From a virus (Duplodnaviria; Heunggongvirae; Uroviricota; Caudoviricetes), in IMG/VR virus record IMGVR_UViG_3300045988_100792: a DNA stretch of 31,250 nt. One strand, 5' to 3'. Under the pieces are notes generated by a model. It made no database searches and was not told the DNA's origin. It was given only the letters and a program-made list of their open reading frames with translations. Positions 1 to 31,250 of the stretch are shown here, piece after piece (position 1 is the stretch's first letter; each line of letters starts with the position of its first letter). The position numbers were made by a program, and so were the translations under genes.

Positions 1-99
1 GCTGCGTGGCAGTGGTTTAAAAACCTGATTGCACCGGTCAAAGCCACCCGGGACACCCTGAACCGTTGCCGTGACACGGGCGTCATGTTCGGGCAGGCA
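1..99. repeat. Terminal inverted repeat, left copy (perfect reverse complement of 31152..31250)
   Basis: Reverse complement of nt 1..99 is identical to nt 31152..31250 by direct reading; identity ends exactly at nt 100. On the + strand it encodes the T fragment AAWQWFKNLIAPVKATRDTLNRCRDTGVMFGQA in the wrong orientation for this end. Confidence 0.9.
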
Positions 100-1916
100 A
101 AAGGGGCGCCCCCCCCTGCCACAACCGGCCAGCTAATCACCCCGATAGCAGTCATAACAGCACTGCCAACCGTCGTGAAGATTGCACCCATTGCGCCTGC
201 TGCCGCGATGATGGCATTGATGCCGGTGATAACCGGCCAGGCTACAAGACCAATTGCACCGATGATGCCAATAAGCGCCAGCGCGCCACCGGCAATGATG
301 CCAATGGTTGACGCCAGTGATTTGTTTTTCTGTATCCAGCCGTCGAGTTTTAACACATACTTTGTGGCCGTCTGTGTGAGCTTACGCAGTGCGCCTTCCT
401 GCTGGTCAAACAGGTCTGTCCCTACCGCCTCATAAGCGGACTGAAACTCCTTAAAGTCACCGCCGAGGTTGTCCTGCATGATATTTACCAGCTCGGCAGT
501 CTTCCCGTCTGAGGCTTTAAACGCAGCGGTCAGTTTGTCCAGCTTTCCGGTTGAGGCGGCAGTCATCAGCACGGCGGCGGCTGAGCTGGCCTCCTCCCCG
601 AAAATAGTTTTCATGTATTCAGCCTGCTGGGCAGTACCGAGCCGGTTTTTCTCAAAACTGGCCTGCATTTCTTTCAGAATGGTAAATACTGGCCGGGTGT
701 TTCCCTTGCTGTCTGAGGTTTTCACACCAAGCTCTTTGAGTGCATCCCATGCTTTTCCCGTCGGTGCCTGCAGACGGCTTAACACGGCACGGCTTCCCGT
801 CCCCGCCATTGAACCGGTAATTTTTGCATCATGCAGTGCCCCGACCATTGCGGCGGTTTCTTCAATGCTGACACCGGCATTTTTTGCCACAGGTGCGGCA
901 TAGGTCAGCGCATCGCTCATGCCGTCAAAATCGGCGGCGGTTTTGTTCATCGTCATGGAGAGAACATCCCCGATATGAGCGACCTTATCGTTTGAAAGCT
1001 GAAAGGCGGATTTCATCCCCATCAGCAGGGCGGCGTTTTCTTCCATCGTGCGGCGGTTCGCCAGCGCCATATTCAGCGTGACCGGCGTTGCCGCCTGAAT
1101 GGCATCAACATCCCCACCCGCTTTCGCGATGATTATCTGTGCACCGGCCGCATCATCCGCCGAGGCGGCGGTATTATCGCCGAGCTGGCGCGCCTGTTTG
1201 CGTAGTGCGGTCATTTCGGCGGAGTCTTTTGCCACTCCGAGCACGGCCTGCAATTCTGAGTTTTTCTGCGCAAACTCATAACCGGGCATCAGCAGCTTAA
1301 CTCCGGCCATCGTTCCCGCAGCAGCAATCCCCACACCGGCAGCGCCCACTGAGGCCATATTTCCGGCCAGCTCCTTTCCGGCCTGATAACGCTGTTTTAC
1401 TGCGTTAAGTTTTGCCTGTTGTGCACTGACACGCGCCAGCGCGTCACGCTGTCGGTTAAGCTGTGCGGTGGTTTCACTGATACGGTTTTTCAGTCCCTGC
1501 TCATCATGTGCAAGATTGCGGGTATTAATTCCCACAGCGGCCAGTTCCCGCTGCTGGCGTTTAACGGAATCCGTCAGGCGGTTATATTTCGCCTGTAAGT
1601 CCTCCGCCGCTCGCTTTGCGGATTCCAGCACTTTCGCCTGAGCACGGGTCGGACGTTCGGTGTTTTTAAACTGTGTGGCAAGGGCTTCGGCTTCCTGCCG
1701 TGCCTTTTCAAGTGCATGACCAGTCACGGCGAGCTGTGCGCTGGTCTTGCGGAATCCCTCAATACGGGATGCCTGACCGTTCAGCTCGCGCAGTGATTTT
1801 TGTGTTTCCCGGATATCCCCCGACAGCGACTTACTCGCTGTGCGGATGGATTTAAACGGGCGGGATGCCTGGTCAACAGCCCTGAGCAATACCTGTAATT
1901 TTACATTGTTACTCAT
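100..1916 (-). CDS. T: Tail tape measure protein gpT, N-terminal ~605 codons (partial, runs off window start)
   Basis: Minus-strand frame open from ATG 1916..1914 (MSNNVKLQVLLRAVDQASRPFKSIR...) to the window edge; A/Q/K-rich coiled-coil then Gly/Ala-rich hydrophobic segment typical of tape measure; directly downstream of E/E' as in P2. The + strand ORFs 85..1281 are antisense to it. Confidence 0.85.
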
Positions 1917-2336
1917 TCGTGTTTCCGCTTCGCCGGAGCGCCTTTTCGCGCCATGTGATGAGTTCGGTCAGGCTCATGGGATACAGTTCTGATGGCGGCC
2001 AGTGAAATATCACTGCCACATCCGCCATCAGGTCATCGACCGAGAGATTTTTCGGAAACGTCACTGCACCGAGTTCGGCGACAAAAAACCGACCACCTTA
2101 CCGGCCAGCGCCACAAGGTCAGGCAGTTCCAGTGCGGCGACTTCCTGCTCGGTCAGCATCGGTGCAGTCATGCGCGGCAGCACCTTAATCAGTGCATCGA
2201 CTTCGGAGTTCGCGACCGCAGCCAGACTGACACCGCGCAGCGTCCCGGCGTTAGGTTTCATCAGCGTGACCTGTTCGATAACCTGCTCACCACGTTTGAC
2301 CGGATTGTCCAGGGTAATGACGTTTTCTTTGTTCAT
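1909..2336 (-). CDS. E': gpE+E' -1 programmed frameshift product (about 142 aa)
   Basis: Slippery T-TTT-TTG on the minus strand at 2088..2082 (codons G-F-L of E). Hand translation of the -1 frame from there gives VAELGAVTFPKNLSVDDLMADVAVIFHWPPSELYPMSLTELITWREKALRRSGNTNE and stop TAA at 1911..1909, overlapping the T start by 8 nt. 85 + 57 = 142 aa, matching P2 E+E' as I recall it. Confidence 0.75.
2061..2336 (-). CDS. E: Tail assembly chaperone gpE (91 aa)
   Basis: 91-aa ORF MNKENVITLDNPVKRGEQ... between tube gene and T; same length and position as P2 E; carries the slippery heptamer near its 3' end. Confidence 0.88.
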   Translation of the reverse strand: MNKENVITLDNPVKRGEQVIEQVTLMKPNAGTLRGVSLAAVANSEVDALIKVLPRMTAPMLTEQEVAALELPDLVALAGKVVGFLSPNSVQ

Positions 2337-2392
2337 GGTTTTCTCACTTCTGAATCGGGGTTAACCGGTCAGCCAGGCTGACCGGATGACAA

Positions 2393-2923: not shown

Positions 2924-4114
2924 TTAATTGCTGTTAACCGAGGTGACCAGATTTGCCAGGTATTTATCGGTAATACGCTGGCGCAGGGTCAGATTTTCAA
3001 GAGGAGGCACCGGGGTATAGTCGTAGTCGATATACAGTTTGCCGGCCTTGAGGGTTTCCGCATCGTTGGACTCTTCGCTGAACCAGCATGTACCATCCAC
3101 GATATAACCGTTGTTTTTCAGTTCACGGAATTTGGCATTGATGCCGTCAATGATGTCGCGAATCAGCGTTGCGGTGATGGGCTTATCAATAGCCCACATG
3201 TGCGCCTCAGCCATCGTGTCGGCCAGTACCTGCGCGGTGCGGGTGTAACTTTCAAAGAGGAACAGCGGATCATCAGAGCAGGTACGGTTACCCCAGAAGC
3301 GGAAACCGTCGCGGCGAATCAGCGTAGTGACGCCTGACTCGTTAAGCAGGTCAGCATCAGTGCCCGGCTTCTGCAAATCCCAGAAGACGGATGCACTGAT
3401 GCCGGTAACACCGTTCACCCCGACGTTGGACAGCGTTTTATGCCAGCCCTGCTCCTGGTCGATTTTAGCGCGCAGACCCAGCGCACGGGCGGTGGCATAC
3501 GCGGTGGCGGTGGTACTGGTAACCGTATCCCATGCGAGGAAATCCGGCCAGATGACCATCAGCTCACGCTGGCTGAAATTCTGACGGTAGGCTTTTGCCT
3601 CGGAAATGGTCTTACAGCCCCATGCGCTGATATACCCGAATGCATTCAGTTCCTGGCATACCGATGCCAGTGCGACGGCGACCTCTTTGGTGTCCAGTCC
3701 CGGCACGCCGAGAATACGCGGTTTAACGCCGGTAACCGACTCAGCGCCCATCAGGGCTTTCAGTCCGGTGTACTGACCGTTTTCGTCGGTGGTGCCGATG
3801 ATATTGGAAACGGTCTGCGCGAGTTTCGTTTCTTCGTCGTCGCCGGTGCCGTCTTCCACACGCACGACAACGGTGACCGGTTTTGACTGGTCAGCGATGG
3901 CCTGCAGCGACGCCGCCAGCGTGCCTTTTTTACCGGCCTTTGCAATTGCGCTCTGCACATTGGTAATCAGCACAGGTTTATTGAGGGGGAAGGTTTCCGC
4001 ATCCGCATCGCTGGCCGTGCAGACCATGCCGACAATGGCAGTGGATACAGTGGAAATGACGCGGGTGCCGTCGTTAATCTCCAGCACCTGCACGCCGTGA
4101 TGATAGTCACTCAT
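2924..4114 (-). CDS. FI: Contractile tail sheath protein gpFI (396 aa)
   Basis: 396-aa ORF MSDYHHGVQVLEINDGTRVIS...; first gene of the FI-FII-E-T-U-D tail operon; length matches P2 FI. Confidence 0.9.
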   Translation of the reverse strand: MSDYHHGVQVLEINDGTRVISTVSTAIVGMVCTASDADAETFPLNKPVLITNVQSAIAKAGKKGTLAASLQAIADQSKPVTVVVRVEDGTGDDEETKLAQTVSNIIGTTDENGQYTGLKALMGAESVTGVKPRILGVPGLDTKEVAVALASVCQELNAFGYISAWGCKTISEAKAYRQNFSQRELMVIWPDFLAWDTVTSTTATAYATARALGLRAKIDQEQGWHKTLSNVGVNGVTGISASVFWDLQKPGTDADLLNESGVTTLIRRDGFRFWGNRTCSDDPLFLFESYTRTAQVLADTMAEAHMWAIDKPITATLIRDIIDGINAKFRELKNNGYIVDGTCWFSEESNDAETLKAGKLYIDYDYTPVPPLENLTLRQRITDKYLANLVTSVNSN

Positions 4115-4233: not shown

Positions 4234-4624
4234 AGCCTATCCTGATTTGTACTCACTCATTTTCCAACTGACAATTTACATAGCCCAAACGCTATCAAAT
4301 CTGACAGTCTGCTTTGAGCGAAAAGCGGACATTTAGTTGGCCGGCTTAATTAGAATGTAGTGAGGAACTAGGAACTGGGGCATAACCTCGCAACTGCGCA
4401 GCCCACCCCTCTAAGAAAAGGCTCAGTGTTAATTGAACGGCGACGATATGCTTGACGTGCTGAAGACTTTTCAGTCACGCTCTGACAAAATTTTCGATAA
4501 AATTAAATAGTTTCAATGGTATGATAAATAAATACTCTGGAATCGGGGTAAGGCTAGGGTGTCACCACCCCGACTTCCCCGCGGTTAAAACACGCTACCC
4601 TGTATGGTTAAATATTGAGGATAT

Positions 4625-5380
4625 ATGGCAGCAGAAACAGTAGTCACAGATGCAGCAGGTACATTAGATACAGCAATAACAATAATAGGTTTTATTGCCA
4701 CAATAGCCTCATTAGTACTCGCCATTGGGGCTATTTGGCTTTCTTTTGTTTTTTATAAAATGTCGAATGAGGCTTCTAAAGAGACAACTAAAGCAGCAAA
4801 AGACATCCAGGCAAGTGTCGAACGACTGGAAAAAATATTTGACAAGTTATATTCAGATACATTCTCTATGATGAGAGATACGGTAACGGATATGCGTCAG
4901 CACATATGGAAAAAACCCCATGCAGGAAGCTCTGATGAGATTCTCAACAATGAAGAAAAAATAAACAACCTCAAGAACAGCATTAGTCAGGAAATTATTT
5001 GCATCGTTGATGAAAAGCTTAAGTCCAATGGAGATAATGAAACTAAAATCAAAGAGTTAGAGAGTAAGATCAAGAAAGTTCTTGATAGTGGAATACAAAA
5101 AACCATTCGTTCACAAGCAGTACCTACAATCTTAATGCGTCGTAAAGCACTAAGTCTGATAAGGCGATATGAAAAGATTAAAGTGGAAGAACTATTGAGA
5201 AAAATGAACATTCTGTTCTCAGAGGATCATTCTTTTAACGATAATGAGTTCATGGAAGCATTATTTAATCTTCGTGAGAACGGATGGATAACATGGACCG
5301 GCCCCTCCGGAAGGATATCCTTAAACGATTATCTTCTTTACATTGGCGATGGCGAGAAAAATAAAGAGGCCAAGGAATAG
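4625..5380 (+). CDS. Hypothetical membrane-anchored coiled-coil protein (251 aa); cargo gene in the Z/fun-type slot
   Basis: Only + strand gene in a run of minus-strand late genes. GAGG at 4617..4620 just upstream of ATG 4625. Visibly AT-rich versus flanks. One hydrophobic helix TAITIIGFIATIASLVLAIGAIWLSFVFY near the N-terminus, then a K/E-rich heptad-like region and a C-terminal globular segment. No family recognised. Confidence 0.75.
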   Translation: MAAETVVTDAAGTLDTAITIIGFIATIASLVLAIGAIWLSFVFYKMSNEASKETTKAAKDIQASVERLEKIFDKLYSDTFSMMRDTVTDMRQHIWKKPHAGSSDEILNNEEKINNLKNSISQEIICIVDEKLKSNGDNETKIKELESKIKKVLDSGIQKTIRSQAVPTILMRRKALSLIRRYEKIKVEELLRKMNILFSEDHSFNDNEFMEALFNLRENGWITWTGPSGRISLNDYLLYIGDGEKNKEAKE

Positions 5381-5572
5381 CTCGCAAAATTTCGTTATTG
5401 TAAAGAGGCCGCAGTGAGATAGATCCTTGCTGCAGCCATTTTCATGAAGCGAACATTTCTAATGAGCTAGACTTAGCCATTCACTCTGCCCGTTTTTGGC
5501 ACAGAGCGGACTGTCAGATTAGTCTTTACTCTGTGCCATAGATATGTAAGCTCACACCAGAGCTCATACAAC

Positions 5573-6100
5573 TTATTGCGGCATTTCCGGCCATTCAGGA
5601 TTTGCAGGATCCACACGACTGACCAGAACGCTGTAACGCTCCCATGCATCCAGTCGGCTACGCTCCTCATCTGTTGCCATGTTCAGTCTGACCGCGCGCT
5701 CCAGCGGCAAAATCACGGATTCAGCATCTGCAAGAAGTCTGGCTTTCCGAATTTCTGCCTGCTGCTGTAATTCCTCTTCCGTATAAATGCGTTTAATCAC
5801 TTTGCCGTCCTTAAACATCCAGTTCCCTGAAATGTCCGCCCGCCGATTAGCAGTAATATCCGCCACTTCAACCACACTTAATCCATCCGGTCTGATAGCT
5901 GTCACATCCTTTTCCACATAGCGGATAATATTATCTTTGTCGTACGCTATTTTTATCGTGTCATCAGCAAAATACTTTTGTTGTTCGTACCAGTTCTTAC
6001 CATCTTCTGAAAAAAACCAGACAACATCAAAGTCCTTTGTCAATTGATATTGTTCAACCGTTTTTGGATTACCCGCCGTAATATTTTTTAAATGCTGCAT
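5573..6100 (-). CDS. G: Tail fibre assembly chaperone gpG (175 aa)
   Basis: 175-aa ORF directly downstream of the tail fibre gene H; length and position as P2 G. Confidence 0.85.
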
Positions 6101-6103
6101 AAA

Positions 6104-8350
6104 TTATACCTGCGCCACGTTATACCATGTCCCGTTAATGTATTTCTGCACTGGTCTGTAATATACGCCACCAATGTTATCGGCAGAGTTTGAGCCGGTA
6201 TCCTGAACAATAATGCCGGTATATACGCAACCTGACGGAGCCTGATGCGTCCATGTAGTACCATTATTTGCTGGTTTATATGTAGATGCACCGCCCAGCC
6301 GCATGTCTCTCACATAACGTGAATCTGACTCAGCTTTGGTGTATGCACCAACATCTCCCGCTGAGGGTTTTCGTGTTGTGGTATAGAAATCAGACCAGCC
6401 AGATTCAAAACCATAACCATCACGGGCTGACCTGTAAGATATACCGCCATTTTTATAATTCACACGAAACTGTACAGCCGGGCAGCTACCAGCATTTATA
6501 TTAAAGTGAAGAATTAATGCAGATGCTCCCCCAATCAGAGCGTTGTATGCGCCACTGTCCCAATTCCATCCAACGGCTGTATCACCATTAACCGTATTAC
6601 CTGTCTGCCGAAGTGCAAATGCACCGACATTTCTGGCATTAAGGGTAATATCTCCAGAACCATCAAAGGCAACACCTGCTATTTTCCTCGGTGTTTCGAG
6701 TTTTGAGGCTGTTGCAGCATTTCCTGAAAGGTTAGAAATAAATGGATGTGAGCAGTAATAACCGCGCCCATTTTTAAAATCCAGAATAGCCTGTGCGTTC
6801 GTGCTTTCTGTAGCGGGATTAGTTGCCCCCCACTTATATGTCGTTTGACCGACGACATAATCCTCTGTCGGAACAATAACCGTTAGCCCTTCCTCTGCAA
6901 GAATTTGCACAGGGAAAGCTCTGGCTTCAACATAAAAAACACTACATACATCATCATCTTTCAGGCTTGTAACAATGGAATGGATTGAACGCTCATTGGT
7001 CTGATACGTCCAGAAATAACCTGCCGCATATGAACCACGATCAGTCCATCCTCCGGGCATAACCATGCCATTAAACTCGCAGTTATTCATTACATAATCG
7101 CCGTTATAACAACCAGTGGAAATAACGACGCGGGATGCCATTTCTCCTGAAAGGCTGGCAGCACGGCGAAAGATAACGGGATACCACTTCCCGGCAACGA
7201 CATTTGCAGGGGCTGCAAACGAATACTTTCGCATTCCCTTTTTCTTATCCACTTCACCTTTGCTGTAAACATTAATGTTACTCAGGAAGCGTTCTTTATC
7301 AGGAATATCCGCACCGTTCTGATCTTTCTGAAGACGTTTTTCAGCATTGTCATTGGCAGACTTCACCGCTTTTGGTGTTGCGGCCAGCGTTTCAGAATCA
7401 CTGTTGGTGGCGCTACTTAGCTGGACAAGACCTTTTCGCGCTGTGGTGGCATCCTGTGCAGTGTATTTCCCGTTAGCAAGGTCATACGCTGTCTTAACCG
7501 CCTTTGGCGTTGCGGCCAGCGTTTCAGAATCGCTGTTGGTGGCACTACTGAGCTGAACAAGGCCTTTTCGCGCGGTGGTGGCATCCTGTGCAGTGTATTT
7601 CCCGTTAGCAAGGTCATATGCTGCTTTTACCGCTTTTGGTGTTGCGGCGAGCGTTTCAGACGTGCTGTTGGTGGCACTACTGAGCTGGACAAGACCTTTT
7701 CGCCCCGTGCTGGCGTCCTGAGCGGTATATTTTCCGTTAGCAAGGTCATATGCTGCTTTTACCGCTTTTGGTGTTGCGGCGAGTGTTTCAGACGTGCTGT
7801 TGGTCGCACTGCTTAACTGAGTAAAACCTTTGGCGGTCAGCGAGGCGTCCGGGTGACGTCGTGACTGTTCATGTTCTGCAATTTTGTCATCAACATAATC
7901 CTGCGTTGCCATCACCGTTGTGGTGTCAATGGTCAGCTCCACTGAGGCCACACTGCTGACGATGATGACCATACGGCAGGTCTGCGAACGCCCTGAGCCT
8001 TCGGCAAGGGCAGGCTTATAACTTTCGGCCATGTTCGCCACGGCAATTAACGTTCCCGCATCATCGTACAGGCCAAGCTCACGCATCCAGAAACCGCCCA
8101 CCTCCGGCGGAATAACCAGCTCTGCGATAATATAATTACTGTTTCGTTTGTCCTGGCTGATTTTGTTCAGCGCATGTCGCCAGACTTCGTGGATAAGCCC
8201 GGTCTGTCCGGCATCCGGGACAGGCAATTTACCACCGCCATCCCCGACGGCCATCGTGGTAATGTTGACCTTCCGCCCTCCCGGCGCGGTTGCCGCTGCC
8301 AGCTTTGCTGCACCGGCAGTGGTGATAACGGTTCTGAATTTTGTGCTCAT
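6104..8350 (-). CDS. H: Tail fibre protein gpH (748 aa) with internal tandem repeats
   Basis: N-terminus MSTKFRTVITTAGAAKLAAATAPGG... typical of P2-type H; four tandem copies of a 44-aa unit (LSSATNSxSETLAATPKAVKxAYDLANGKYTAQDA...); Gly/Tyr/Trp-rich C-terminal receptor-binding-like region. Longer than the 669 aa I recall for P2 H. Confidence 0.9.
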   Translation of the reverse strand: MSTKFRTVITTAGAAKLAAATAPGGRKVNITTMAVGDGGGKLPVPDAGQTGLIHEVWRHALNKISQDKRNSNYIIAELVIPPEVGGFWMRELGLYDDAGTLIAVANMAESYKPALAEGSGRSQTCRMVIIVSSVASVELTIDTTTVMATQDYVDDKIAEHEQSRRHPDASLTAKGFTQLSSATNSTSETLAATPKAVKAAYDLANGKYTAQDASTGRKGLVQLSSATNSTSETLAATPKAVKAAYDLANGKYTAQDATTARKGLVQLSSATNSDSETLAATPKAVKTAYDLANGKYTAQDATTARKGLVQLSSATNSDSETLAATPKAVKSANDNAEKRLQKDQNGADIPDKERFLSNINVYSKGEVDKKKGMRKYSFAAPANVVAGKWYPVIFRRAASLSGEMASRVVISTGCYNGDYVMNNCEFNGMVMPGGWTDRGSYAAGYFWTYQTNERSIHSIVTSLKDDDVCSVFYVEARAFPVQILAEEGLTVIVPTEDYVVGQTTYKWGATNPATESTNAQAILDFKNGRGYYCSHPFISNLSGNAATASKLETPRKIAGVAFDGSGDITLNARNVGAFALRQTGNTVNGDTAVGWNWDSGAYNALIGGASALILHFNINAGSCPAVQFRVNYKNGGISYRSARDGYGFESGWSDFYTTTRKPSAGDVGAYTKAESDSRYVRDMRLGGASTYKPANNGTTWTHQAPSGCVYTGIIVQDTGSNSADNIGGVYYRPVQKYINGTWYNVAQV
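7362..7860. repeat. Tandem 132-bp repeats inside H (about 4 copies)
   Basis: Near-identical 132-bp units beginning at 7381, 7513, 7645 and 7777 (cggccagcgtttcagaatc... / cggcgagcgtttcagacgtg...), with partial copies at both edges; in frame, giving the 44-aa protein repeat. Confidence 0.85.
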
Positions 8351-8360
8351 TATTCCTCAC

Positions 8361-8891
8361 TTATCCGGGGTAAACCGTAATTACATCGCCGTCGTAAGCC
8401 ACACAACCGGCGAACAGGTAGCCGGGAATGTCCCGGGTAATGTTCAGGCCAATAAGGTGGCGACTTGCAGGTTTGGCATCAGCAATCAGCCGTTCCATTT
8501 CCTGATACATTGCCTCTGTGATGCCACTTTCCAGTACACCAATATCAAGCCGGAAGGTGCCCGGCGGGTCACTGGTTTCCCACCACTCCGTCACGTTGAT
8601 GAGATAGCCGAGCGGCTCCACCACACGCCGGATTGCACCTATAGTGCCTTTATGACAGTGGATGAAATAGGCATCGCGGATAACGGCGCGTTTTGTCGCT
8701 TCCGGCCACTTTTCATCCCACCTGTCGACCGAAAACGCCCACGCCAGCCACGGCAGCAGATTTGCCGGACAGGTGTCCGGGTTCCACAGCTCACGAATAC
8801 TGACCGGCGTTTTTTCAATTTCCGCACAGGCTTTTGCGGCGGCGACCTCAAGCGGTGATGAGCCGGTCGGCAGCAGTCGCGAATCACTCAT
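8361..8891 (-). CDS. I: Baseplate assembly protein gpI (176 aa)
   Basis: 176-aa ORF between J and H; order and length as P2 I. Confidence 0.88.
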   Translation of the reverse strand: MSDSRLLPTGSSPLEVAAAKACAEIEKTPVSIRELWNPDTCPANLLPWLAWAFSVDRWDEKWPEATKRAVIRDAYFIHCHKGTIGAIRRVVEPLGYLINVTEWWETSDPPGTFRLDIGVLESGITEAMYQEMERLIADAKPASRHLIGLNITRDIPGYLFAGCVAYDGDVITVYPG

Positions 8892-9792: not shown

Positions 9793-9796
9793 GGTT

Positions 9797-22748: not shown

Positions 22749-25033
22749 CATTTCCACTCCATTACTGTTGAGAATCCCGGCCACTCATCAGCGACCGGAT
22801 ACGTGAATTTTTTCCCGTCATAATTTACGGTCGCGCCACGCGCCTGCGCCTCAAGCTCCCATCGCTGCGGCCTGATACCGTTCTGAGCAAGGTCAACGCG
22901 GATACGGGTAATTTGCATTCTTTCCGACCGGGTCAGTCTGGCCGATGGTGCAATTTCATGTGGTTTTAACGGGCTTCCGTTTCTTTGTTGACGGTTTGGC
23001 GTTCTCAGGTCGTGTTTTAATGCACCCCTGAGCGCCCTCACGACCTCCGGGTCATTCCATTCGATAACACCATCATCAACCAGATTAAGCACTGCTGCGG
23101 CGTGTTCAGAAGGCGTGGGAGCCGGTGACGAAGTATCACCACCGGTGAGCTTTCCACAGTTATTGACAGGACTCCGAGGCGCGGCGATGCCGCTTTTTAA
23201 CGTCAAAGGCTCAACGACCGGCACTTTCGGCACAATGCGCCAGTCCGTCGTTCTGGTGATATGAATATGACGCGCGCCGAGATGCGGCGCGTAAATGCCG
23301 ACCACTCTCTCGACCTCTTCCTCGTACTCGTTAACGTCATCCGACGGGCTACGGGCGACTCTGACAGTCTGACAATCGCGCGGAACATTTGCCCCACCCT
23401 GCGCGCTGATATACAACGCAAAATCACCACTGTCTGCGGCGGCGCGTGCAGCCTCGACGCGCTCGTCAAACTCATCAGCAATGCTGACGCCGCGAGGCAA
23501 TTTGCGTAGTTCACGGTAAGCCCCCATTGTCGGCAGACCAACCGTTTTAAATTGCGGAATGCGCCACGTTGACGCCCATGCGGTAACAGCAGCAGCTGTG
23601 TCTTTCAGCGGCCTACCGGTATCATTATCGAGCTGACCATCCAGTGCATAGCCGTCGATGTTTTTTGAGATGTATTTCGCGATATACCCCGCAGCACCGC
23701 CCCGATTAAGGTGTTTTGCCTGAAAACGGTTTCGCGCGGCTCCTCTTTCGTCGCCATCCTCTTTGAGCGCATAGCGACGCATGATTTCGATAATCTGGTT
23801 ACGCTGGCGCGGATTACAAAAAAGCATCATATGCCAGTGCGGCGTTCCGTCGTGGTGTGGCTCGACGACACGCAAACCGTAGACCTGTAAATCATTATCC
23901 TTGAATGCCGTGCGCATCAGGCTCCAGATACGGCAGAGATAACGCTGCGCATCCTTTGGATTAAATGCCTCATCGTTCCAGCCGTGATTTAGCTGGACGG
24001 TTTTACTTTCGCCTTTTCCAACCTGACGTGTCGGGTGATACTTTGACGGCGCGGTCAGCGTGATAAACATCCCCACATCACCCTCTGCTGCGGCGTAACG
24101 CTCAATACCGGCAATGGTGTTCATCAGCTCCATCCGGCGAATTTCAGGATTAGAAATACTGCCCATCACCTTACTGATAAGGTCGATGCGCTCGCCGGTT
24201 TCCCTGTTTTCGAGATCACACGATTTAAGAAATTCCAGATTTGCCTGGCGGCGTGCACGCACATCACGAATGGCATGTTTACTGGCATAAGGAGAACGGT
24301 CTTTATTGACCTCCCCGACAGCAATCAGTAACGCCTCATGCCAGCGCATACGCTGGCCTTTAAGCTGACTAATCCACCACTCATCGTTAAACAGACGGGC
24401 AATGGCAGAATATGCCTGCCTCGTGGTCATCTGCCCTTTACGGTATTTTTTCCAGTAGAGAGGGGAAATATTGAAAGCTCGTGCAGCGCCAGCAACATGA
24501 CCATACAGGTGAGCCTGTGCCTCATCCGTAAACAGCGATTCTTTCTCGCCATGCGCATCCACCCAGGCATCGCAGAGTTCCTCATACATCATGAAAAGCT
24601 GCGATGAGATACGGGCGGCAAACTTTTTCAGCTCCTTGTCATTCATCCCCGGCAGACGCGCATAATGGTCACGCTCTGCCAGAAACAGCAACGACGCGTC
24701 GGTGTTCATTTCATGGCGCTGATTCACACGCTCAATGCGCGGCCATAAACGACGCTGAAAAGTGGATGTGAGAAAATAAAACCCGTGCACCGGGCTTTTA
24801 TTGCGCCGGATGTAGTCATAGCGTGAAGTAAACAGCGAGCGCAAAAAGTAAGGCAGGCGGTTAATCGTGGATAAAACACCTTGCACCTGACGCATCTCGT
24901 CACGTGTAAGGGGTCTTTCGCGCCCGACGGCCTCGCGTGGCGCGTTCCATGCATAAGCACCGGTAAACGCCTTACCGGTGCCTGCGGCAAATGCTGACGG
25001 AGGGACAAAACGCCCGGAGGCTTTAACGGCCAT
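22748..25033 (-). CDS. A: Replication initiation endonuclease gpA (761 aa, rolling-circle)
   Basis: Start taken at MAVKASGRFVPPSAF... giving 761 aa as in P2 A; last and largest gene of the cox-B-A early operon. Confidence 0.9.
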   Translation of the reverse strand: MAVKASGRFVPPSAFAAGTGKAFTGAYAWNAPREAVGRERPLTRDEMRQVQGVLSTINRLPYFLRSLFTSRYDYIRRNKSPVHGFYFLTSTFQRRLWPRIERVNQRHEMNTDASLLFLAERDHYARLPGMNDKELKKFAARISSQLFMMYEELCDAWVDAHGEKESLFTDEAQAHLYGHVAGAARAFNISPLYWKKYRKGQMTTRQAYSAIARLFNDEWWISQLKGQRMRWHEALLIAVGEVNKDRSPYASKHAIRDVRARRQANLEFLKSCDLENRETGERIDLISKVMGSISNPEIRRMELMNTIAGIERYAAAEGDVGMFITLTAPSKYHPTRQVGKGESKTVQLNHGWNDEAFNPKDAQRYLCRIWSLMRTAFKDNDLQVYGLRVVEPHHDGTPHWHMMLFCNPRQRNQIIEIMRRYALKEDGDERGAARNRFQAKHLNRGGAAGYIAKYISKNIDGYALDGQLDNDTGRPLKDTAAAVTAWASTWRIPQFKTVGLPTMGAYRELRKLPRGVSIADEFDERVEAARAAADSGDFALYISAQGGANVPRDCQTVRVARSPSDDVNEYEEEVERVVGIYAPHLGARHIHITRTTDWRIVPKVPVVEPLTLKSGIAAPRSPVNNCGKLTGGDTSSPAPTPSEHAAAVLNLVDDGVIEWNDPEVVRALRGALKHDLRTPNRQQRNGSPLKPHEIAPSARLTRSERMQITRIRVDLAQNGIRPQRWELEAQARGATVNYDGKKFTYPVADEWPGFSTVMEWK

Positions 25034-25298
25034 ATGAGCCAAAAGCCTCTGAACAACGCTTGCTGAGTTGCTCAACCTGCGCGTTTAAATCAGCAAAAGA
25101 CTTTGCGCTTCCGGTCAGAATATCGTGATGCATCAGGCCGGAAACGAGCTGGCTTAATTTCGGGTAATAACCAACCACCGACAGCCATTCCTGACCGGCG
25201 TTTTTACCGCTTTCCGCTCTCTTTTTCTCGTGGAGAATAAACTGAAAGCTGTCACTGGTAACGACATAACGTTCGCCAATTTCGATACGAATACTCAT
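25023..25298 (-). CDS. Early-operon small protein (P2 orf83-position)
   Basis: 91-aa ORF immediately upstream of A, overlapping its start; identified by position only. Confidence 0.65.
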   Translation of the reverse strand: MSIRIEIGERYVVTSDSFQFILHEKKRAESGKNAGQEWLSVVGYYPKLSQLVSGLMHHDILTGSAKSFADLNAQVEQLSKRCSEAFGSYGR

Positions 25299-25519
25299 GC
25301 CATTCTCCGGTAATGTTTGTTTTTTGCTTCAAAGACTGACTGACAGGAAACACAACGCGTGGCTGACGGATAAGCCGCACGACGGGCAGCAGGTATTGGC
25401 GCGTCACACTCTTCGCAAACCAGCGCAGAAGCACCGCAATGTTTTACCCTTGCCGCGTTAATCTGGCGCTCCAGTAATTCAGCCTGTTGTTCCTGAATAA
25501 AATCTACGTTGTCCGGCAT
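25295..25519 (-). CDS. TraR/DksA-type C4 zinc-finger protein (P2 orf82-position)
   Basis: 74 aa with two Cys pairs, CEECD and CVSCQ, spaced as in the TraR/DksA zinc finger. Confidence 0.72.
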   Translation of the reverse strand: MPDNVDFIQEQQAELLERQINAARVKHCGASALVCEECDAPIPAARRAAYPSATRCVSCQSVFEAKNKHYRRMA

Positions 25520-25824
25520 TACCAGTTCCTTTTGTCGTTAAGGTTTTTAAATTCATCAGCGCAATAACTGGCAATTTCTGTCGTTAATTTCGTCAGTTCA
25601 TCCACGGAGGAGATTTGCTTGTGAAATACAGCGCGTTTAACAAGTAAATTGACCACATCAGACAGGAGATTTAATTCGTTCTGATAAATCGCGATAACAG
25701 ACTCAGTTATTTCGCGTTTTTCTTTATCAAGACCAAGTTGAATAAGAGACAAATCGCCATTTTTCATAACGGCGATTTTTAGGGCGTTATTCAGTAATAC
25801 AACTGAACGAGAACAGGACATCAA
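25519..25824 (-). CDS. Early-operon hypothetical protein (101 aa, AT-rich)
   Basis: ORF in operon context between B and A; noticeably AT-rich; no motif recognised. Confidence 0.6.
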
Positions 25825-26045
25825 AGCACCTCCCCGCGAGACAATCCGATATTGTGAAATTTTTCCGACTCCTGACTGAGCAGCTCGACTATCTCCACGC
25901 GGGATAACTCCGCCTTTGTGATGTGGCGAATCATGGCGTCAAGATGAGAAGAAAAGCGCGTCGCAGCGTCGGCCTGTGCTTCGGTTCTGGCCTGTTGCAG
26001 CATTAATGCGTATATACCGCACTGATTTTCAGAAACTGTATGCAT
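25821..26045 (-). CDS. Early-operon hypothetical protein (74 aa)
   Basis: Small ORF tightly packed (4-nt overlap) with the downstream gene; position as the P2 small early ORFs. Confidence 0.6.
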
Positions 26046-26108
26046 GACTTTCTCCAGGCAAAAAGAAGCCCCGCACGATTAAGTGCGTTAAAAACTCTGG
26101 TTAATTAT

Positions 26109-26609
26109 TTAATGCAGATATTGCTCTGGTTTTACCGACGTCAGAATTGTCGGTGCATACTCAAACAGGCTGAATAATTCACGTAATGCACGGAACAAAG
26201 CATCACGCCAGTAACATGATTCTTCATTAATTCGCCAGTATGGCTGGTTGAATTCTTTTTCAGTCAGTCGTGCGTGCATAAATAAAGTGCGACGCTGACT
26301 GACTGTTAAAAAACTAATATATGCATACTCACTTGCGCCAACCTGACGGCGTTTTGAGAATGCGCCACGCAATTCATCAATTGCACAAACCAGCCGTTCA
26401 CGTTCGACGTCGTTCATTTCTTCAAAACGCATCGTTGCGTGACGTTGTTTTAACTGCGCATGAAAGCAAACTGTTAGCCGTTCGCGCTCCATCATCTGAT
26501 TATAATAATCACATGTATCCTGCCAGCGAGGAACGGCAAGATGCTTACCAATTATCCGGCGCATAGCTGCTGGCTGTTTTTCAACGAGATTGAGCGTCAT
26601 CACTGTCAT
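26109..26609 (-). CDS. B: Replication protein gpB (166 aa, helicase-loader-like)
   Basis: 166-aa ORF MTVMTLNLVEKQPAAMRRIIGKH...; order and length as P2 B. Confidence 0.85.
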   Translation of the reverse strand: MTVMTLNLVEKQPAAMRRIIGKHLAVPRWQDTCDYYNQMMERERLTVCFHAQLKQRHATMRFEEMNDVERERLVCAIDELRGAFSKRRQVGASEYAYISFLTVSQRRTLFMHARLTEKEFNQPYWRINEESCYWRDALFRALRELFSLFEYAPTILTSVKPEQYLH

Positions 26610-26800
26610 TTCCAGGCCCTCCGGCTTTTCAGAAAGGTCAGAGCCTTTTTTAACGGACTCTGTTTTTTGGTGCGGATAATGATTCCCTTACGCCCCTTAC
26701 CGTGGGTGATGGTGAAGTCAATCGCCCTGGGGCTTTCGTTACGCAGTAACTGAGCAATACAACGAGGCTCATTCATACGGTTCTCCTTAACGTGGTTCAC
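26606..26800 (-). CDS. Early-operon small protein (P2 orf78-position)
   Basis: 64-aa basic ORF between cox and B, overlapping both neighbours. Confidence 0.55.
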   Translation of the reverse strand: MNHVKENRMNEPRCIAQLLRNESPRAIDFTITHGKGRKGIIIRTKKQSPLKKALTFLKSRRAWK

Positions 26801-27062
26801 CGAGACCTAACCACATCAACCAGCCGTCACGAATCTCTTTAGGGCGGCTTTCATAAGCCAGTTTTAGTCCGTTATTCCATGCCGGAAGGTATACCCAATA
26901 TTCACCTGCACGACCTGAAGCTGATTGTGGATCGGTCATATCAATTACAGGCAGCTTTCCTTTATCGATCATCCGACGAACCGCTCCTGTCGATTTTCCT
27001 ATTAGTTTTGCGAACTCCTGATAAGGAATCGCATCAGTCATGAGTGTTACTTGCTTGCTCAT
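26787..27062 (-). CDS. cox: Cox: excisionase and repressor of Pc (91 aa)
   Basis: 91-aa first gene of the early operon, divergent from C; sequence MSKQVTLMTDAIPYQEFAKLIGKSTGAVRRMIDKGKLPV... has an HTH-like segment; length as P2 Cox. Confidence 0.88.
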   Translation of the reverse strand: MSKQVTLMTDAIPYQEFAKLIGKSTGAVRRMIDKGKLPVIDMTDPQSASGRAGEYWVYLPAWNNGLKLAYESRPKEIRDGWLMWLGLGEPR

Positions 27063-27075
27063 GTCGTCCTCTAGC

Positions 27076-27184
27076 CCTCATGAATTGCGTTTAATGTCTT
27101 ATAATGCCTTTTAGTGCCCACATCCAAGCACTAAACAATCTACATCTAAACTAAATACTATTGAGATCTAAACACCATGTCAAA
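27076..27184. promoter_or_regulatory. Pe/Pc face-to-face switch with C operator direct repeats
   Basis: + strand TATAAT at 27100..27105 (Pc, towards C). On the minus strand, TTGACA (RC of 27179..27184), an 18-nt spacer and TAGTAT (RC of 27155..27160) form Pe towards cox. ATCTAAAC direct repeats at 27144..27151 and 27166..27173 (22-bp spacing) flank the Pe -10. Predicted transcripts converge and overlap by about 35-40 nt. Confidence 0.6.
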
Positions 27185-27476
27185 CACGATAAGCGAGAAG
27201 ATAGTCTTAATGCGAAAATCAGAGTATTTGAGCAGACAACAACTTGCTGATTTAACAGGGGTTCCGTATGGCACGCTGAGTTACTATGAAAGTGGTCGTT
27301 CAACACCTCCAACAGATGTCATGATGAACATCCTGCAGACCCCACAATTCACCAAATACACTTTATGGTTCATGACCAATCAGATCGCTCCTGAGTCCGG
27401 GCAAATTGCGCCCGCTCTCGCACACTTTGGGCAAAACGAAACAACGTCGCCCCACTCCGGTCAAAAGACTGGTTAA
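27177..27476 (+). CDS. C: Immunity repressor C (99 aa)
   Basis: 99-aa ORF MSNTISEKIVLMRKSEYLSRQQLADLTGVPYGTLSYYESGRS... with an HTH; divergent from cox and upstream of int, as P2 C. Confidence 0.9.
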   Translation: MSNTISEKIVLMRKSEYLSRQQLADLTGVPYGTLSYYESGRSTPPTDVMMNILQTPQFTKYTLWFMTNQIAPESGQIAPALAHFGQNETTSPHSGQKTG

Positions 27477-27591: not shown

Positions 27592-28605
27592 ATGGCAATC
27601 AAAAAACTCGATGATGGTCGATATGAAGTGGACATCCGCCCTACTGGACGTAATGGAAAACGCATCCGTAGGAAGTTTGATAAGAAAAGCGAAGCTGTCG
27701 CTTTCGAGAAATACACGTTGTACAACCACCACAATAAAGAATGGCTATCAAAACCAACAGACAAGCGACGTCTGTCGGAGCTGACACAGATCTGGTGGGA
27801 TTTAAAGGGTAAACACGAAGAGCATGGGAAATCTAATCTTGGAAAAATTGAAATCTTCACAAAAATAACGAATGACCCATGCGCATTTCAAATTACGAAA
27901 TCGCTTATCAGCCAGTACTGCGCCACCCGAAGAAGTCAGGGTATTAAACCTTCGAGTATCAATCGTGATTTAACATGTATTAGCGGCATGTTTACAGCCC
28001 TGATTGAAGCGGAGTTATTCTTTGGTGAGCACCCTATCAGAGGGACAAAAAGGCTTAAGGAGGAAAAACCAGACACAGGCTATCTCACGCAGGAAGAAAT
28101 TGCCTTACTGCTTGCTGCTCTTGACGGCGACAACAAAAAGATTGCGATTCTTTGCCTGAGTACTGGAGCACGTTGGGGAGAAGCAGCTCGTTTGAAAGCA
28201 GAAAATATCATCCATAACCGCGTCACGTTTGTTAAAACGAAAACAAACAAACCACGCACCGTCCCGATCTCAGAGGCTGTTGCCAAAATGATCGCGGATA
28301 ACAAACGAGGTTTTTTATTCCCTGATGCTGATTACCCTCGCTTCAGACGAACAATGAAAGCAATAAAACCGGATTTGCCAATGGGGCAAGCCACACATGC
28401 ACTAAGGCACAGCTTTGCCACTCATTTCATGATTAATGGAGGAAGTATTATCACGCTACAACGGATACTAGGTCACACGCGGATTGAGCAAACTATGGTT
28501 TACGCTCATTTTGCGCCAGAGTACCTTCAGGACGCCATTTCTCTTAATCCGCTAAGAGGTGGTACTGAGGCCGAGAGTGTCCACACAGTGTCCACAGTAG
28601 AGTAA
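27592..28605 (+). CDS. int: Tyrosine integrase (337 aa)
   Basis: 337-aa ORF with a C-terminal catalytic region containing HxxRHSFATH... and LGHTRIEQTMVYAH (R, H-x-x-R and Y signature of tyrosine recombinases); adjacent to the attP core. Confidence 0.92.
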   Translation: MAIKKLDDGRYEVDIRPTGRNGKRIRRKFDKKSEAVAFEKYTLYNHHNKEWLSKPTDKRRLSELTQIWWDLKGKHEEHGKSNLGKIEIFTKITNDPCAFQITKSLISQYCATRRSQGIKPSSINRDLTCISGMFTALIEAELFFGEHPIRGTKRLKEEKPDTGYLTQEEIALLLAALDGDNKKIAILCLSTGARWGEAARLKAENIIHNRVTFVKTKTNKPRTVPISEAVAKMIADNKRGFLFPDADYPRFRRTMKAIKPDLPMGQATHALRHSFATHFMINGGSIITLQRILGHTRIEQTMVYAHFAPEYLQDAISLNPLRGGTEAESVHTVSTVE

Positions 28606-28684
28606 CGTTTAAGGGCTTTCAGTGGTAATTTATGCCGCTCAAACCCGCATTGTACCGTTGAAAGCCCCTACTGGTGACACCCTA

Positions 28685-28711
28685 AATCTCCCTTACACGG
28701 GCTTATTTTTT
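28685..28711. other. attP: attP core (27 bp)
   Basis: aatctcccttacacgggcttatttttt is the reverse complement of AAAAAATAAGCCCGTGTAAGGGAGATT, which I recall as the P2 attP/attB core; lies between int and ogr as in P2 and is not interrupted by host DNA. Confidence 0.6.
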
Positions 28712-28782
28712 ACGCGTAATTCAATGAAATAAAAGGATTTATTTCTGGTCACGTCCACACATTGACCACATCGACAAAAAAA

Positions 28783-28810
28783 GCCCCTCGACTGAGGGGC
28801 TTTCTGTTTG
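28783..28810. terminator. Bidirectional rho-independent terminator between attP and ogr
   Basis: GCCCCTC / GAGGGGC 7-bp stem with loop GACT, flanked by AAAAAAA on the 5' side (+ strand) and TTTCTGTTTG on the 3' side; 4 nt downstream of the ogr stop on the minus strand. Confidence 0.65.
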
Positions 28811-28813
28811 TAA

Positions 28814-29032
28814 TTACATCCACATAATTTGCTGCCCTGACGGTAACGGGTGCGGCCTTACGGCGTGGACTTCTCCCGGCTTTACGATGTATCGCTGTAC
28901 CGACTCATAAGTGATGAACGTGGCGCTGCAATTCACGTTCTGACACTGGTGATAACGCTCTTTTGTCGTGTCAGTGATATAGCGGCTTGTACGCGCATGT
29001 GCGGCATGCTGGCATAAAGGACAATGAAACAT
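28814..29032 (-). CDS. ogr: Late transcription activator Ogr (72 aa, Cys4 zinc finger)
   Basis: Start taken at MFHCPLCQHAAHARTSRYITDTTKERYHQCQNVNCSATF... (CxxC...CxxxxC zinc finger); 72 aa as P2 Ogr; the listed 93-aa ORF is an upstream extension. Confidence 0.85.
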   Translation of the reverse strand: MFHCPLCQHAAHARTSRYITDTTKERYHQCQNVNCSATFITYESVQRYIVKPGEVHAVRPHPLPSGQQIMWM

Positions 29033-29113
29033 CGCGAGCACCTCTTCCGGTTTTGTTGATGGTGCCATTTTAGTTAATTTATCCTTATAAAACAAATAGA
29101 TAAAATAAAAACA

Positions 29114-30277
29114 TCACTCATCATCTTCTGTTTCGTACTCCACATCAGAAAGCCTGACCTCAAGCTCCAGGGACGTCGTGAAGCCGCTATTATTCAGAAA
29201 ATGTGTCACCTTAGTGATTGTCCAGTCCTGCTCGTCTATGACGCGCTTAAAGCCTGACACTTTAACCGGTGTTTCCGTGTAAATATCAGCCCGACCAGTA
29301 GCCAGGCTGATGGAGAACTCCGCAACACCCCGTTGCAATTTATCCCACTTCGCCTGAGCGGCGCGCATGGCCTGCGCTTTTGTGGCATATACCGTGGTCA
29401 GGGCAAAAACGTTGTCAGCCTCACCGGCCATGTATTCACCTTCGCGCGTTTCCGGTACTTTTGGCGCTTTCTTCTGCGTGACCGGTTTTGCTTTCGGGTG
29501 CTCCAGTGCGCGCAGGTGTTTTTCTTTCTTTTTGCGTTTCAGTTTTACCTTCTGCTTTTGCGGCTTCGGGTCTTTGGTGTGAAGCCACTTTGCCGTTACG
29601 CCGGTATAGGCTCCACGGTCAGCAATCGCAAAATGGTGGCGGTCGCCGTCGCTGCGGGTTATGGTGACCTGCGGGATTTTTTTACCGCTGGCCGTCACCC
29701 CCTGCCCCGCTTTGAGAAACAGCAGTTTTCCCATTTTTACCGACACCTCACCGCCGTTGCGTTCTGCAAGACGGGTCAGAAATTTCGCATCGGACTCCTG
29801 CGACTGGTCGATGTGTGGAATTTTTATTCCGGCCAGTGACGGAGCAACACTGGCTTCCAGCCTGTTACGGGAGGCTATCGCCTCAACAATCGCACCGAGC
29901 GTGGTGTCATGCCAGGAGCCTTCCCGGCGGGAATTGAGCGTCCCGCGAAAATCTGCACTCCGGGCGCGGATGGTGACCACATCTGGCGCGCCCCGGTGTT
30001 CAACCTCATCAACGGTAAATTTCCCCTTGCATACCAGGGCAAAACCTTTCCAGCCGATATACACCGTCAGGACAGCGCCACGAACCGGCAGCCCGACCTG
30101 CCCGTCGGCATCGTTCAGTTCAATATCAAGCTGGTCAGCCTCAAAGCCCCGGTTATCCGTCAGGGTCATGCTCATCAGACGGTCGCTGATATTGCCGGTA
30201 ATATCCCTGCTGTCGAGCATCAGCATGTAATCCGGCGTCAGCGTACTGCCTGCATCAAATGTCAGCGCATCCAGCAT
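29114..30277 (-). CDS. D: Tail protein gpD (387 aa)
   Basis: 387-aa ORF, last gene of the tail operon before ogr; order and length as P2 D. Confidence 0.88.
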   Translation of the reverse strand: MLDALTFDAGSTLTPDYMLMLDSRDITGNISDRLMSMTLTDNRGFEADQLDIELNDADGQVGLPVRGAVLTVYIGWKGFALVCKGKFTVDEVEHRGAPDVVTIRARSADFRGTLNSRREGSWHDTTLGAIVEAIASRNRLEASVAPSLAGIKIPHIDQSQESDAKFLTRLAERNGGEVSVKMGKLLFLKAGQGVTASGKKIPQVTITRSDGDRHHFAIADRGAYTGVTAKWLHTKDPKPQKQKVKLKRKKKEKHLRALEHPKAKPVTQKKAPKVPETREGEYMAGEADNVFALTTVYATKAQAMRAAQAKWDKLQRGVAEFSISLATGRADIYTETPVKVSGFKRVIDEQDWTITKVTHFLNNSGFTTSLELEVRLSDVEYETEDDE

Positions 30278-30756
30278 TATCCCGCCCCCGTCATACCCGT
30301 GAATTTAGTCGCCATACTGCCAGCCTTACCGATGAGCGATTCTGCCTGTTTACCGATATCGCCATAAAGCGCGGCCAGTGACTCATCAACGCGGGTGAGC
30401 GACAGCGTAAAATCAATTTTCCGTGGTGTGCCGTCTGCAAAGAAAATACTCCCTGTTTCACTCACCCTGCCGATGACATACATGCCGTAAATCATGCCGG
30501 TGCCATCCAGCAACGGCCACGCCCGGCCTTCCTCTGCCATCAGTCTGAGCGTGGTCATCGTCAGCTTGCCGCCGGTCAGTTCGGGATAAAGCACACCGGC
30601 AAGCGTGATGTTTTCCTCACCCACACCGAGAAACTGAAAGGCATCCCGTTTACCGATACGGGAATTTGACGGCCAGCGATAATCTGATTCACGCTGCATG
30701 GTCTGGTGTGGCAGCGTCTGGCGCATAAAAACAAACATACCTAACGCGAGCATCAT
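30277..30756 (-). CDS. U: Tail protein gpU (159 aa)
   Basis: 159-aa ORF between T and D; start overlaps... the D start codon overlaps the U stop; order and length as P2 U. Confidence 0.88.
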   Translation of the reverse strand: MMLALGMFVFMRQTLPHQTMQRESDYRWPSNSRIGKRDAFQFLGVGEENITLAGVLYPELTGGKLTMTTLRLMAEEGRAWPLLDGTGMIYGMYVIGRVSETGSIFFADGTPRKIDFTLSLTRVDESLAALYGDIGKQAESLIGKAGSMATKFTGMTGAG

Positions 30757-30770
30757 TTTTCGTCACCTCC

Positions 30771-31250
30771 TTAACCGTCATGCATCATGCTGGCACGGGC
30801 GCGCGCACGTTTATCCCGCTCGTATTTTTCGAGCGCATCCTGTAACTGGCGGTCAAGCTGTGTCCCCGGTGCAGTACCACCCGTCAGGCTGATGTGATAT
30901 TCGTTTTTACTCTGGTCCACATAAGAGCGGCCAGCCGGTGCCGTGACCGGCTGATAAGCCTGATAGCCTGCATAAGAGCTGGCCGCCGGAATATAACCAC
31001 CGGTGCCATACGTGGCGGCATGAGTTCTGGCGGCGGTCTGGTCAAGTGTGTCTGACTCTTTGTTGATGACCCCGAGCTTTTCCAGTACCCAGTCAATGCC
31101 GCTGCGTAATTTGTTGAACGCATTAAGCGGCAGCATCAGCGCGTCAGCCAGTGCCTGCCCGAACATGACGCCCGTGTCACGGCAACGGTTCAGGGTGTCC
31201 CGGGTGGCTTTGACCGGTGCAATCAGGTTTTTAAACCACTGCCACGCAGC
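30771..31250 (-). CDS. T: Tail tape measure protein gpT, C-terminal about 160 codons (partial, enters from beyond window end)
   Basis: Minus-strand frame open from the window end to the stop at 30771; hand translation from 31250 gives AAWQWFKNLIAPVKATRDTLNRCRDTGVMFGQALADALML... with no in-frame stop, so the listed ATG at 31166 is internal. Immediately upstream of U. Confidence 0.85.
   Translation of the reverse strand, partial: AAWQWFKNLIAPVKATRDTLNRCRDTGVMFGQALADALMLPLNAFNKLRSGIDWVLEKLGVINKESDTLDQTAARTHAATYGTGGYIPAASSYAGYQAYQPVTAPAGRSYVDQSKNEYHISLTGGTAPGTQLDRQLQDALEKYERDKRARARASMMHDG
31152..31250. repeat. Terminal inverted repeat, right copy (reverse complement of 1..99)
   Basis: Perfect 99-nt reverse-complement identity with nt 1..99; here the sequence is in its native context inside the T C-terminal coding region. 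Confidence 0.9.

Follow-up and report, generated by a model that had tools for sequence, protein, structure and literature searches.

Bacteriophage P2 (AF063097 / NC_001895) carries linear DNA with 19-nt cohesive ends in its virions, and the genome circularises at cos once it has been injected. Integration is the work of the P2 Int protein, through recombination between the 27-nt attP core and the host site, while replication begins with nicking by gpA of the ori inside gene A and leads to circular monomers, which the terminase (P and M) cuts at cos. Two further genomes of this type are public. The record of Escherichia phage 9W (OM475431.1) runs unbroken through cos and attP and has a 320-nt direct terminal redundancy around cos; the record of Peduovirus P22H4 (LR595869.1 / NC_049385.1) is opened inside the cos 19-mer, with remnants of adapters left on either end. 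The phage analysed here is not described in the paper in which P22H4 is mentioned (PMC12945033).

The DNA that we analysed, a stretch of 31250 nt referred to below as the window, is a P2-type (Peduovirus) coliphage genome, rotated and presented on the reverse strand. Matches to 38 of the 42 P2 proteins were found in it by tblastn, at 74–100% identity and in the P2 order, and the gene content and order of P2 are present (Q P; O N M L X Y K lysABC R S V W J I H G; FI FII E T U D ogr; int C; cox B A). Across 31146 collinear bases, the junction discussed below excluded, the window differs from 9W by only four transitions and from P22H4 by only five. Even with three junction errors added to these five substitutions the nucleotide identity is above the 95% used to delimit species; judged by its sequence, the window phage is a P2-type temperate coliphage of the same species as P22H4 and 9W. 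All three genomes share the same cargo genes at both moron loci, a 748-aa H, the cos and attP sites and an 815-aa T frame. The 31146 collinear bases together with 156 bases missing from the window make 31302, which is the length of the 9W record (31622) minus its 320-nt terminal redundancy. With two near-identical genomes already public, the phage is a known and ordinary one.

All four differences from 9W that lie outside the junction are transitions, and the two that were checked are natural alleles, since the FII variant E164G occurs on other natural contigs and position 27154 has the P2 wild-type base. Sequencing error was therefore rejected as the source of these four differences.

Comparison with P2 itself gives ∼96–98% nucleotide identity over ∼80% of the genome. 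The two agree in gene order, in the cos 19-mer, in the core and arms of attP and in the length of T. Int (337 aa; 27592–28605, plus strand) is 99.7% identical to P2 Int, while Cox and the immunity repressor C (27177–27476) are 100% identical to their P2 counterparts; C and the Pe/Pc operator region with its O1/O2 8-mers together occupy 27063–27476 (plus strand). The equivalent of the ori nick site lies at ∼23175 in gene A (22748–25033, minus strand), where 41 of 41 bases equal those around P2 position 29892. The two phages differ in G, which is only 74% identical to P2 G, and in the tail fibre protein H, which is longer than that of P2 and diverges after residue 251. The window lacks P2 orf30, and in place of fun(Z), tin and old it has other ORFs to which no function was assigned.

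Most of the remaining genes lie on the minus strand. Gene E (2061–2336), located by tblastn and from the 9W annotation, has an E+E′ frameshift extension that runs on to about 1909; it is followed by FII (tail tube, 2393–2911) and FI (tail sheath, 2924–4114), both found by tblastn with the P2 proteins. The tail fibre, baseplate and tail completion genes G, H, I, J, W, V, S and R occupy 5573–11755, without orf30 among them. Next come the lysis genes lysC, lysB, lysA, K and Y (11718–13494) and tail gene X with head genes L, M, N and O (13498–17109). The plus-strand genes P (terminase ATPase) and Q (portal) span 17217–20023. On the minus strand again are orf83, orf82, orf81, orf80, B, orf78 and cox (25023–27062) and, in 28814–30756, ogr (28814–29032), D (29114–30277) and U (30277–30756). 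A search of the window with Rfam gave no match at the gathering threshold.

The two cargo modules stand where P2 carries its own accessory genes. At the Z/fun locus, a plus-strand module (4330–5489) takes the place of P2 15357–17432 and carries a 251-aa ORF (4625–5380) with no function assigned. At the tin/old locus, a minus-strand module (20242–22527) takes the place of P2 30540–33545 and contains ORFs of 232 aa (20338–21036), 257 aa (21135–21908) and 68 aa (22090–22296), as well as the C-terminal part of a 151-aa ASCH/DUF3850 ORF (22296–22751) whose N-terminal 75 residues match P2 orf91. For three of the cargo proteins PADLOC, Pfam and NCBIfam returned nothing significant, and PHROGs matched the cargo proteins only to families of unknown function.

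Both sites at which a P2-type genome is normally opened are unbroken in the window. The cos 19-mer GGCGAGGCGGGGAAAGCAC (20194–20212, minus strand) is uncut, with P2-like flanks on both sides (20000–20241); it is exact and unique, is identical to P2 cosL/cosR and had no match in shuffled sequences. The contiguity of Q, cos and cargo at 20.0–20.3 kb that the original prediction described holds in detail, with Q ending at 20023 and the first cargo ORF starting at 20338. A complete attP region (28566–28812, minus strand), with P arm, IHF site, core, Cox sites and P′ arm, was delimited by alignment to P2 24255–24500; over its 247 nt it departs from P2 only in an indel of one base, an offset of one terminal base and six substitutions, all of which lie within or next to the IHF site. 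The 27-nt core (28685–28711) is exact, unique and identical to P2 24356–24382, with no match in 100 shuffles. It lies between int and ogr as had been claimed for 27.6–29.0 kb, and phage DNA, not host DNA, flanks it on both sides, as is also the case for cos.

In five integrated relatives, homology to the window stops exactly at the left edge of the core (28684/28685), and in none of the 2243 complete E. coli genomes that match the window are int, attP and ogr contiguous. We thus agree with the earlier proposal of non-integrated, cos-joined DNA: on the comparisons made, the arrangement in the window is that of such DNA and not of a prophage. Since cos and attP are both unbroken, the source of the reads would have been either the circular form, excised or replicating, or virion DNA in which the cos ends were annealed. 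Both fit the sequence, which does not by itself separate them.

Multiple P2 lysogens are known from the classical literature, and the window could in principle be a collapsed or internal stretch of an array of at least two tandem prophage copies in a bacterial chromosome. In such an array attP is formed anew between neighbouring copies and cos stays uncut, which would give int-attP-ogr and Q-cos-cargo contiguity without host DNA over a window of genome length. It is a highly improbable source of the window, and we rejected it. Besides the absence of a contiguous attP from all 2243 matching genomes, a window taken from inside an array should be collinear from end to end and lack only ∼52 nt, whereas 156 nt are missing, 104 nt are non-collinear and the ends form an inverted repeat. 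Collapse of an array during short-read assembly would also be expected to break the sequence at the att core, not inside T.

The ends of the window fall inside gene T, the tail tape measure gene, which is split between them as originally reported. The 3′ part (residues 657–815 and the stop codon in P2/9W numbering) occupies 30771–31250 and the 5′ part runs from 1916 downwards, both on the minus strand. The 5′ part had been followed down to position 100. Our alignments show it to be exact only as far as 117 (residue 600) and collinear only from 105; within 117–1916, residues 1–600 are 98.5% identical to P2 gpT and identical to 9W. T has 815 aa in P2, 9W and P22H4, which bears out the length given for P2 in the original prediction. 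Relative to these three genomes the window lacks 156 nt, that is, 52 codons in frame (0 mod 3), and four further codons are corrupted. The previous estimate of a gap of about 150 nt was close, while the statement that its length was 1 mod 3 (151 nt) was wrong, having arisen from counting 100–104 as part of T. The missing piece is identical in 9W and P22H4 and has 57% GC, and we found no feature in it that would explain a drop in coverage. The absent and corrupted codons most likely represent an assembly gap.

Positions 1–99 (plus strand) are not collinear with the genome. They are the reverse complement of 31152–31250 (minus strand), the last 99 nt of the T 3′ part, and tblastn accordingly finds P2 T residues 657–689 a second time at 1–99 on the plus strand. 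The window thus has an inverted terminal repeat of 99 nt, 100% complementary and placed exactly at its two ends; the original prediction did not mention it. Between the left arm and T lies a 17-nt junction, AAAGGGGCGCCCCCCCC (100–116), of which 100–104 match nothing; in the T sequence of 105–116, next to these five unmatched bases, C has replaced the original base by transversion at 109, 112 and 115. A 10-nt palindrome, GGGGCGCCCC, is found at 103–112. A 45-mer across the junction had no exact match in the viral, metagenome and genome contig collections, and a BLAST search with positions 1–400 found no record spanning it among phages, plasmids and 5426 E. coli genomes. Exact-protein matching with the ORF that crosses the junction, with the variant of the 232-aa protein specific to the window and with FII E164G likewise led only to contigs other than the source.

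These ends do not support the view that the window is an assembly closed into a circle and then opened at an arbitrary point of T. In that case the ends should abut or overlap directly; the window has no direct terminal repeat of at least 8 nt, and 156 nt are missing between its ends. The inverted repeat, the error-like junction and the absent 156 nt point instead to a failure of assembly in T. That the genome is circular across T would follow only from 9W, P22H4 and P2, in which T is intact; as far as the sequence goes, the window itself does not close.

The window is very probably a whole contig from a short-read de Bruijn assembly of non-integrated P2-type phage DNA, with ends that are an artefact of that assembly. 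According to this explanation, assembly would have failed in the 156-nt stretch of T and left the contig unclosed, and a chimeric or low-quality read path would have joined T at ∼105–117 to the reverse complement of the opposite contig end. The long unique path through the graph would then start and end on one and the same 99-mer vertex, in opposite orientations, and this shared vertex would appear as an inverted terminal repeat of k-mer length (a k = 99 de Bruijn hairpin). Whereas the identity of the phage, the intact cos and attP, the 156-nt gap, the inverted repeat and the junk are shown by the sequence, the identity of the window with a whole contig is inferred, and the assembler and its k of 99 are guesses. 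The figure of 31250 nt resembles a preset window size; if it is one, a whole contig of just that length would be an unexplained coincidence.

The round length, and the fact that the repeat is perfect and exactly terminal, would also suit an addition of the inverted 99 nt after assembly (by padding, scaffolding, polishing or data handling) to an underlying contig of 100–31250 or 117–31250. We consider this very unlikely: the junk at 100–116 resembles read error and not padding, and no common tool known to us adds a reverse complement as padding.

Alternatively, the inverted end could be real, and the window could come from a rearranged, defective or snap-back P2-type genome, produced for example by strand switching during rolling-circle replication. 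The perfect repeat and the palindrome in the junction fit such an event, as does the T reading frame, which runs across the junction as far as the end of the window without a stop codon. We find this scarcely credible, however, because the arms are as long as a k-mer in standard use by assemblers and end exactly where the contig does, and the junction bears the signature of errors, with its three transversions to C and five orphan bases. T is moreover essential, so that tails could not form, and the junction occurs in no other sequence of any collection searched. That an inverted copy of the T 3′ part was truly joined to T at codon 600–604 is on the same evidence exceedingly doubtful, and there is hardly any prospect that a real inverted end with a palindromic junction is a defective by-product of replication or packaging that was abundant enough to assemble.

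The probable assembly artefact bears on how such contigs are classified. CheckV, IMG/VR and MetaVR apply an ITR flag, denoting a putatively complete linear genome, to contigs whose two ends carry the same sequence, inverted, over 20 nt or more, and under these rules the window would carry it (PMC8116208, PMC12807716). In a test by CheckV, only 33% of contigs with inverted terminal repeats were >90% complete (PMC8116208), and contigs of this kind in gut viromes are suspected artefacts (PMC9610469). The window resembles ITR-flagged contigs in having an inverted repeat at both ends. Genuine ITR phages have protein-primed ends. Those of the window phage are cohesive, and its replicon is of the gpA rolling-circle type, with the replication genes A and B and the ori of P2. 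A genuine repeat of this type would be expected in relatives, at true termini and together with genes for protein priming. In the window its arms lie inside the essential gene T, and the repeat is absent from 9W, P22H4 and P2, all of which have an intact T.

Biologically there is little new in the phage, its cos and attP sites or its circular intermediate, which are those of the P2 of the textbooks; the practical lesson is one of quality control. Any tool for which a terminal inverted repeat no shorter than 20 nt suffices would label the window a complete linear ITR genome. It is in fact the genome of a cos phage that lacks 156 nt of an essential gene and has 116 bad bases at one end, 104 of them non-collinear and 12 error-laden. 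Because the reading frame is open through the junction, a gene caller would in addition report a false, chimeric T protein.

The window carries a P2-type (Peduovirus) genome on the reverse strand, and the phage is already known: BLAST against phage records gave a rounded 100% identity to Escherichia phage 9W (OM475431.1) and Peduovirus P22H4 (LR595869.1) from base 105 to the window end. Base-by-base comparison outside the first 116 bases left four differences from 9W and five from P22H4. Those from 9W (at 2421, 17260, 20504 and 27154) are all transitions. Two were checked: the FII variant at 2421 is also present on other natural contigs, and the window base at 27154 is that of wild-type P2. 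Three of the four are non-synonymous (FII E164G, P H15R and I178T in a 232-aa cargo protein); position 27154 falls in the interval from O1 to O2, immediately past the Pe −10, and there both 9W and P22H4 have C. The 9W record has a 320-nt direct terminal redundancy across cos, giving a unique length of 31302 nt. The P22H4 record has non-phage ends (1-29 and 31333-31342), with a start, CGTGGGCTCGGAGATGTGTATAAGAGACAG, that we take to be a Nextera adapter remnant and a 3′ end reading CTGTCTCTTA; its phage sequence is opened within the cos 19-mer (GGCGAGGCG / GGGAAAGCAC).

Of the 42 annotated proteins of P2, tblastn located 38 in the window, in P2 order and at 74-100% identity; orf30, fun(Z), tin and old, all non-essential, had no match. 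The lowest identity, 74%, is that of G, and the tail fibre H has 748 aa vs 669 aa in P2, diverging past residue 251; within gene H (6104-8350, minus strand), a 132-nt (44-codon) unit is repeated in tandem 3.4 times at 7361-7810, the copies 90% matching. Where P2 has orf30, between S and V, a 66-nt spacer is left (10777-10842). The Z/fun moron locus (4330-5489) holds other cargo, a 251-aa ORF (4625-5380, plus strand) with a hydrophobic N-terminal stretch; its protein had no significant match in Pfam, PADLOC or NCBIfam, falls in PHROG 36054, a family without assigned function, and recurs unchanged at this position in numerous E. coli prophages (143 index blocks). The cargo is bounded by an inverted repeat of 34 nt that is imperfect (4298-4331 and 5487-5520, 82% complementary), both arms lying in P2-conserved flanks at the very edges of the replaced segment. 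Beside cos, the tin/old locus (20242-22527) is replaced by minus-strand ORFs of 232 aa (20338-21036) and 257 aa (21135-21908), both with a hydrophobic N-terminal stretch, and of 68 aa (22090-22296). These three had no significant match in Pfam, PADLOC v2 or NCBIfam and fall in PHROGs without assigned function; they are candidate defence genes, since P2 has its phage-exclusion genes tin and old there.

P2 virion DNA is linear with 19-nt cohesive ends and circularises at cos. Int and IHF recombine the attP core with the host site, Cox and C decide between lysis and lysogeny at the Pe/Pc operators, gpA nicks ori, and the terminase (P, M) cuts circular monomers at cos. The window contains Int (27592-28605), Cox (26787-27062), the immunity repressor C (27177-27476; 100% identical to P2 C, and present though unannotated in the 9W record), the operators (27063-27176), gpA (22748-25033) with the equivalent of the ori nick site at ∼23175 (41 of 41 bases identical to P2), P (17217-18989) and M (14310-15053).

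The P2 cohesive-end 19-mer GGCGAGGCGGGGAAAGCAC, identical to cosL/cosR in the P2 record, occurs as a single exact copy (20194-20212, minus strand) with P2-like sequence on either side; Q ends at 20023, and the first cargo ORF lies from 20338 on. The attP core AAAAAATAAGCCCGTGTAAGGGAGATT is likewise present in one exact copy (28685-28711); neither was matched in 100 shuffles. The 247 nt around the core align with the annotated P2 attP region (P arm, IHF site, core, Cox sites and P′ arm), from which they depart by an indel of one base, an offset of one terminal base and six substitutions, all within the IHF site or next to it. The integrity of attP was tested against integrated prophages that share the 251-aa cargo gene. 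Five (L004, L006, L009, L011 and L012) are identical to the window from ogr across the core, and this identity ends exactly at 28684/28685, with host DNA beyond. Among the 2243 complete E. coli genomes matching a 501-nt int-attP-ogr probe, none has the contiguous arrangement, and P2-int prophages match the probe to at most 8 nt past the core. The window therefore represents a non-integrated arrangement, which also makes its origin from a tandem lysogen unlikely. With cos and attP both intact, the reads derive either from circular DNA or from virion DNA whose ends had annealed, two sources that cannot be told apart by sequence.

The core of the original prediction, a P2-type genome with unbroken attP and cos and with the tail tape-measure gene T split across the ends, is thus borne out, as is its non-integrated form; a circle cleanly opened inside T it is not. 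A repeat search, in which bases 1-99 proved 100% complementary to 31152-31250, revealed an inverted repeat that the prediction had overlooked. By tblastn, P2 T residues 657-689 are accordingly matched twice, on the minus strand at the right end and on the plus strand at 1-99. The repeat is exactly 99 nt, because base 100 mismatches; there is no match for bases 100-104 (AAAGG), at 105-116 the window has GGCGCCCCCCCC in place of GGCGGCCACCAC in 9W and P22H4 (three transversions, each to C), and identity to both is exact from 117 onward, so the 5′ part of T does not reach 100 as had been proposed. The T frame stays open through this junk up to the window end, giving a false tail (...AGGGAPFACPNMTPVSRQ...). 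No direct terminal repeat of at least 8 nt was found in the window.

Both 9W and P22H4 have the same 156 nt between window positions 31250 and 105, corresponding to T residues 605-656, identical in P2. The sums close in codons (604 + 52 + 159 = 815, as T has in P2, 9W and P22H4) and in bases (31146 collinear bases + 156 = 31302, or the 31622 of 9W minus its redundancy), and the gap is therefore in frame (0 mod 3). The predicted size of about 150 nt was a good estimate; the predicted remainder of 1 mod 3 (151 nt) was wrong, bases 100-104 having been miscounted as T.

No record spanning window 1-400 was found in 5426 complete E. coli genomes, 50,697 phage records and 72,556 plasmids; T is matched in 1573 of the 5426 genomes, always beginning at 105 or 106. 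Collections of viral, metagenome and genome contigs contain no copy of a 45-mer spanning the junction. The junction differences, transversions to one base, adjoin the orphan bases; all other window differences are transitions. The arm length equals a k-mer size common among de Bruijn assemblers (99, or k = 100 with overlaps of 99 nt). Most likely, we infer, the inverted end is an assembly artefact. The true path across the 156-nt stretch would have lost coverage or been clipped, and a chimeric or low-quality read path would have joined T at ∼105-117 to the other end, the sequence finishing at 31250, in reverse complement. The long unique path would then begin and finish on one 99-mer vertex in opposite orientations, and the assembler would print that vertex at both ends. 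The position of the repeat exactly at both ends argues that the window is the whole contig, the agreement of its length with a round window size (31250) being an unexplained coincidence.

CheckV and MetaVR take identical inverted repeats of ∼20 nt or longer at contig ends to indicate that a genome is complete (PMC8116208; PMC12807716). In CheckV's own test just 33% of inverted-repeat contigs were >90% complete (PMC8116208), and a gut-virome study notes that contigs with inverted terminal repeats outnumber what biology predicts and may be artefacts (PMC9610469). The window is a clear worked example of such a contig.
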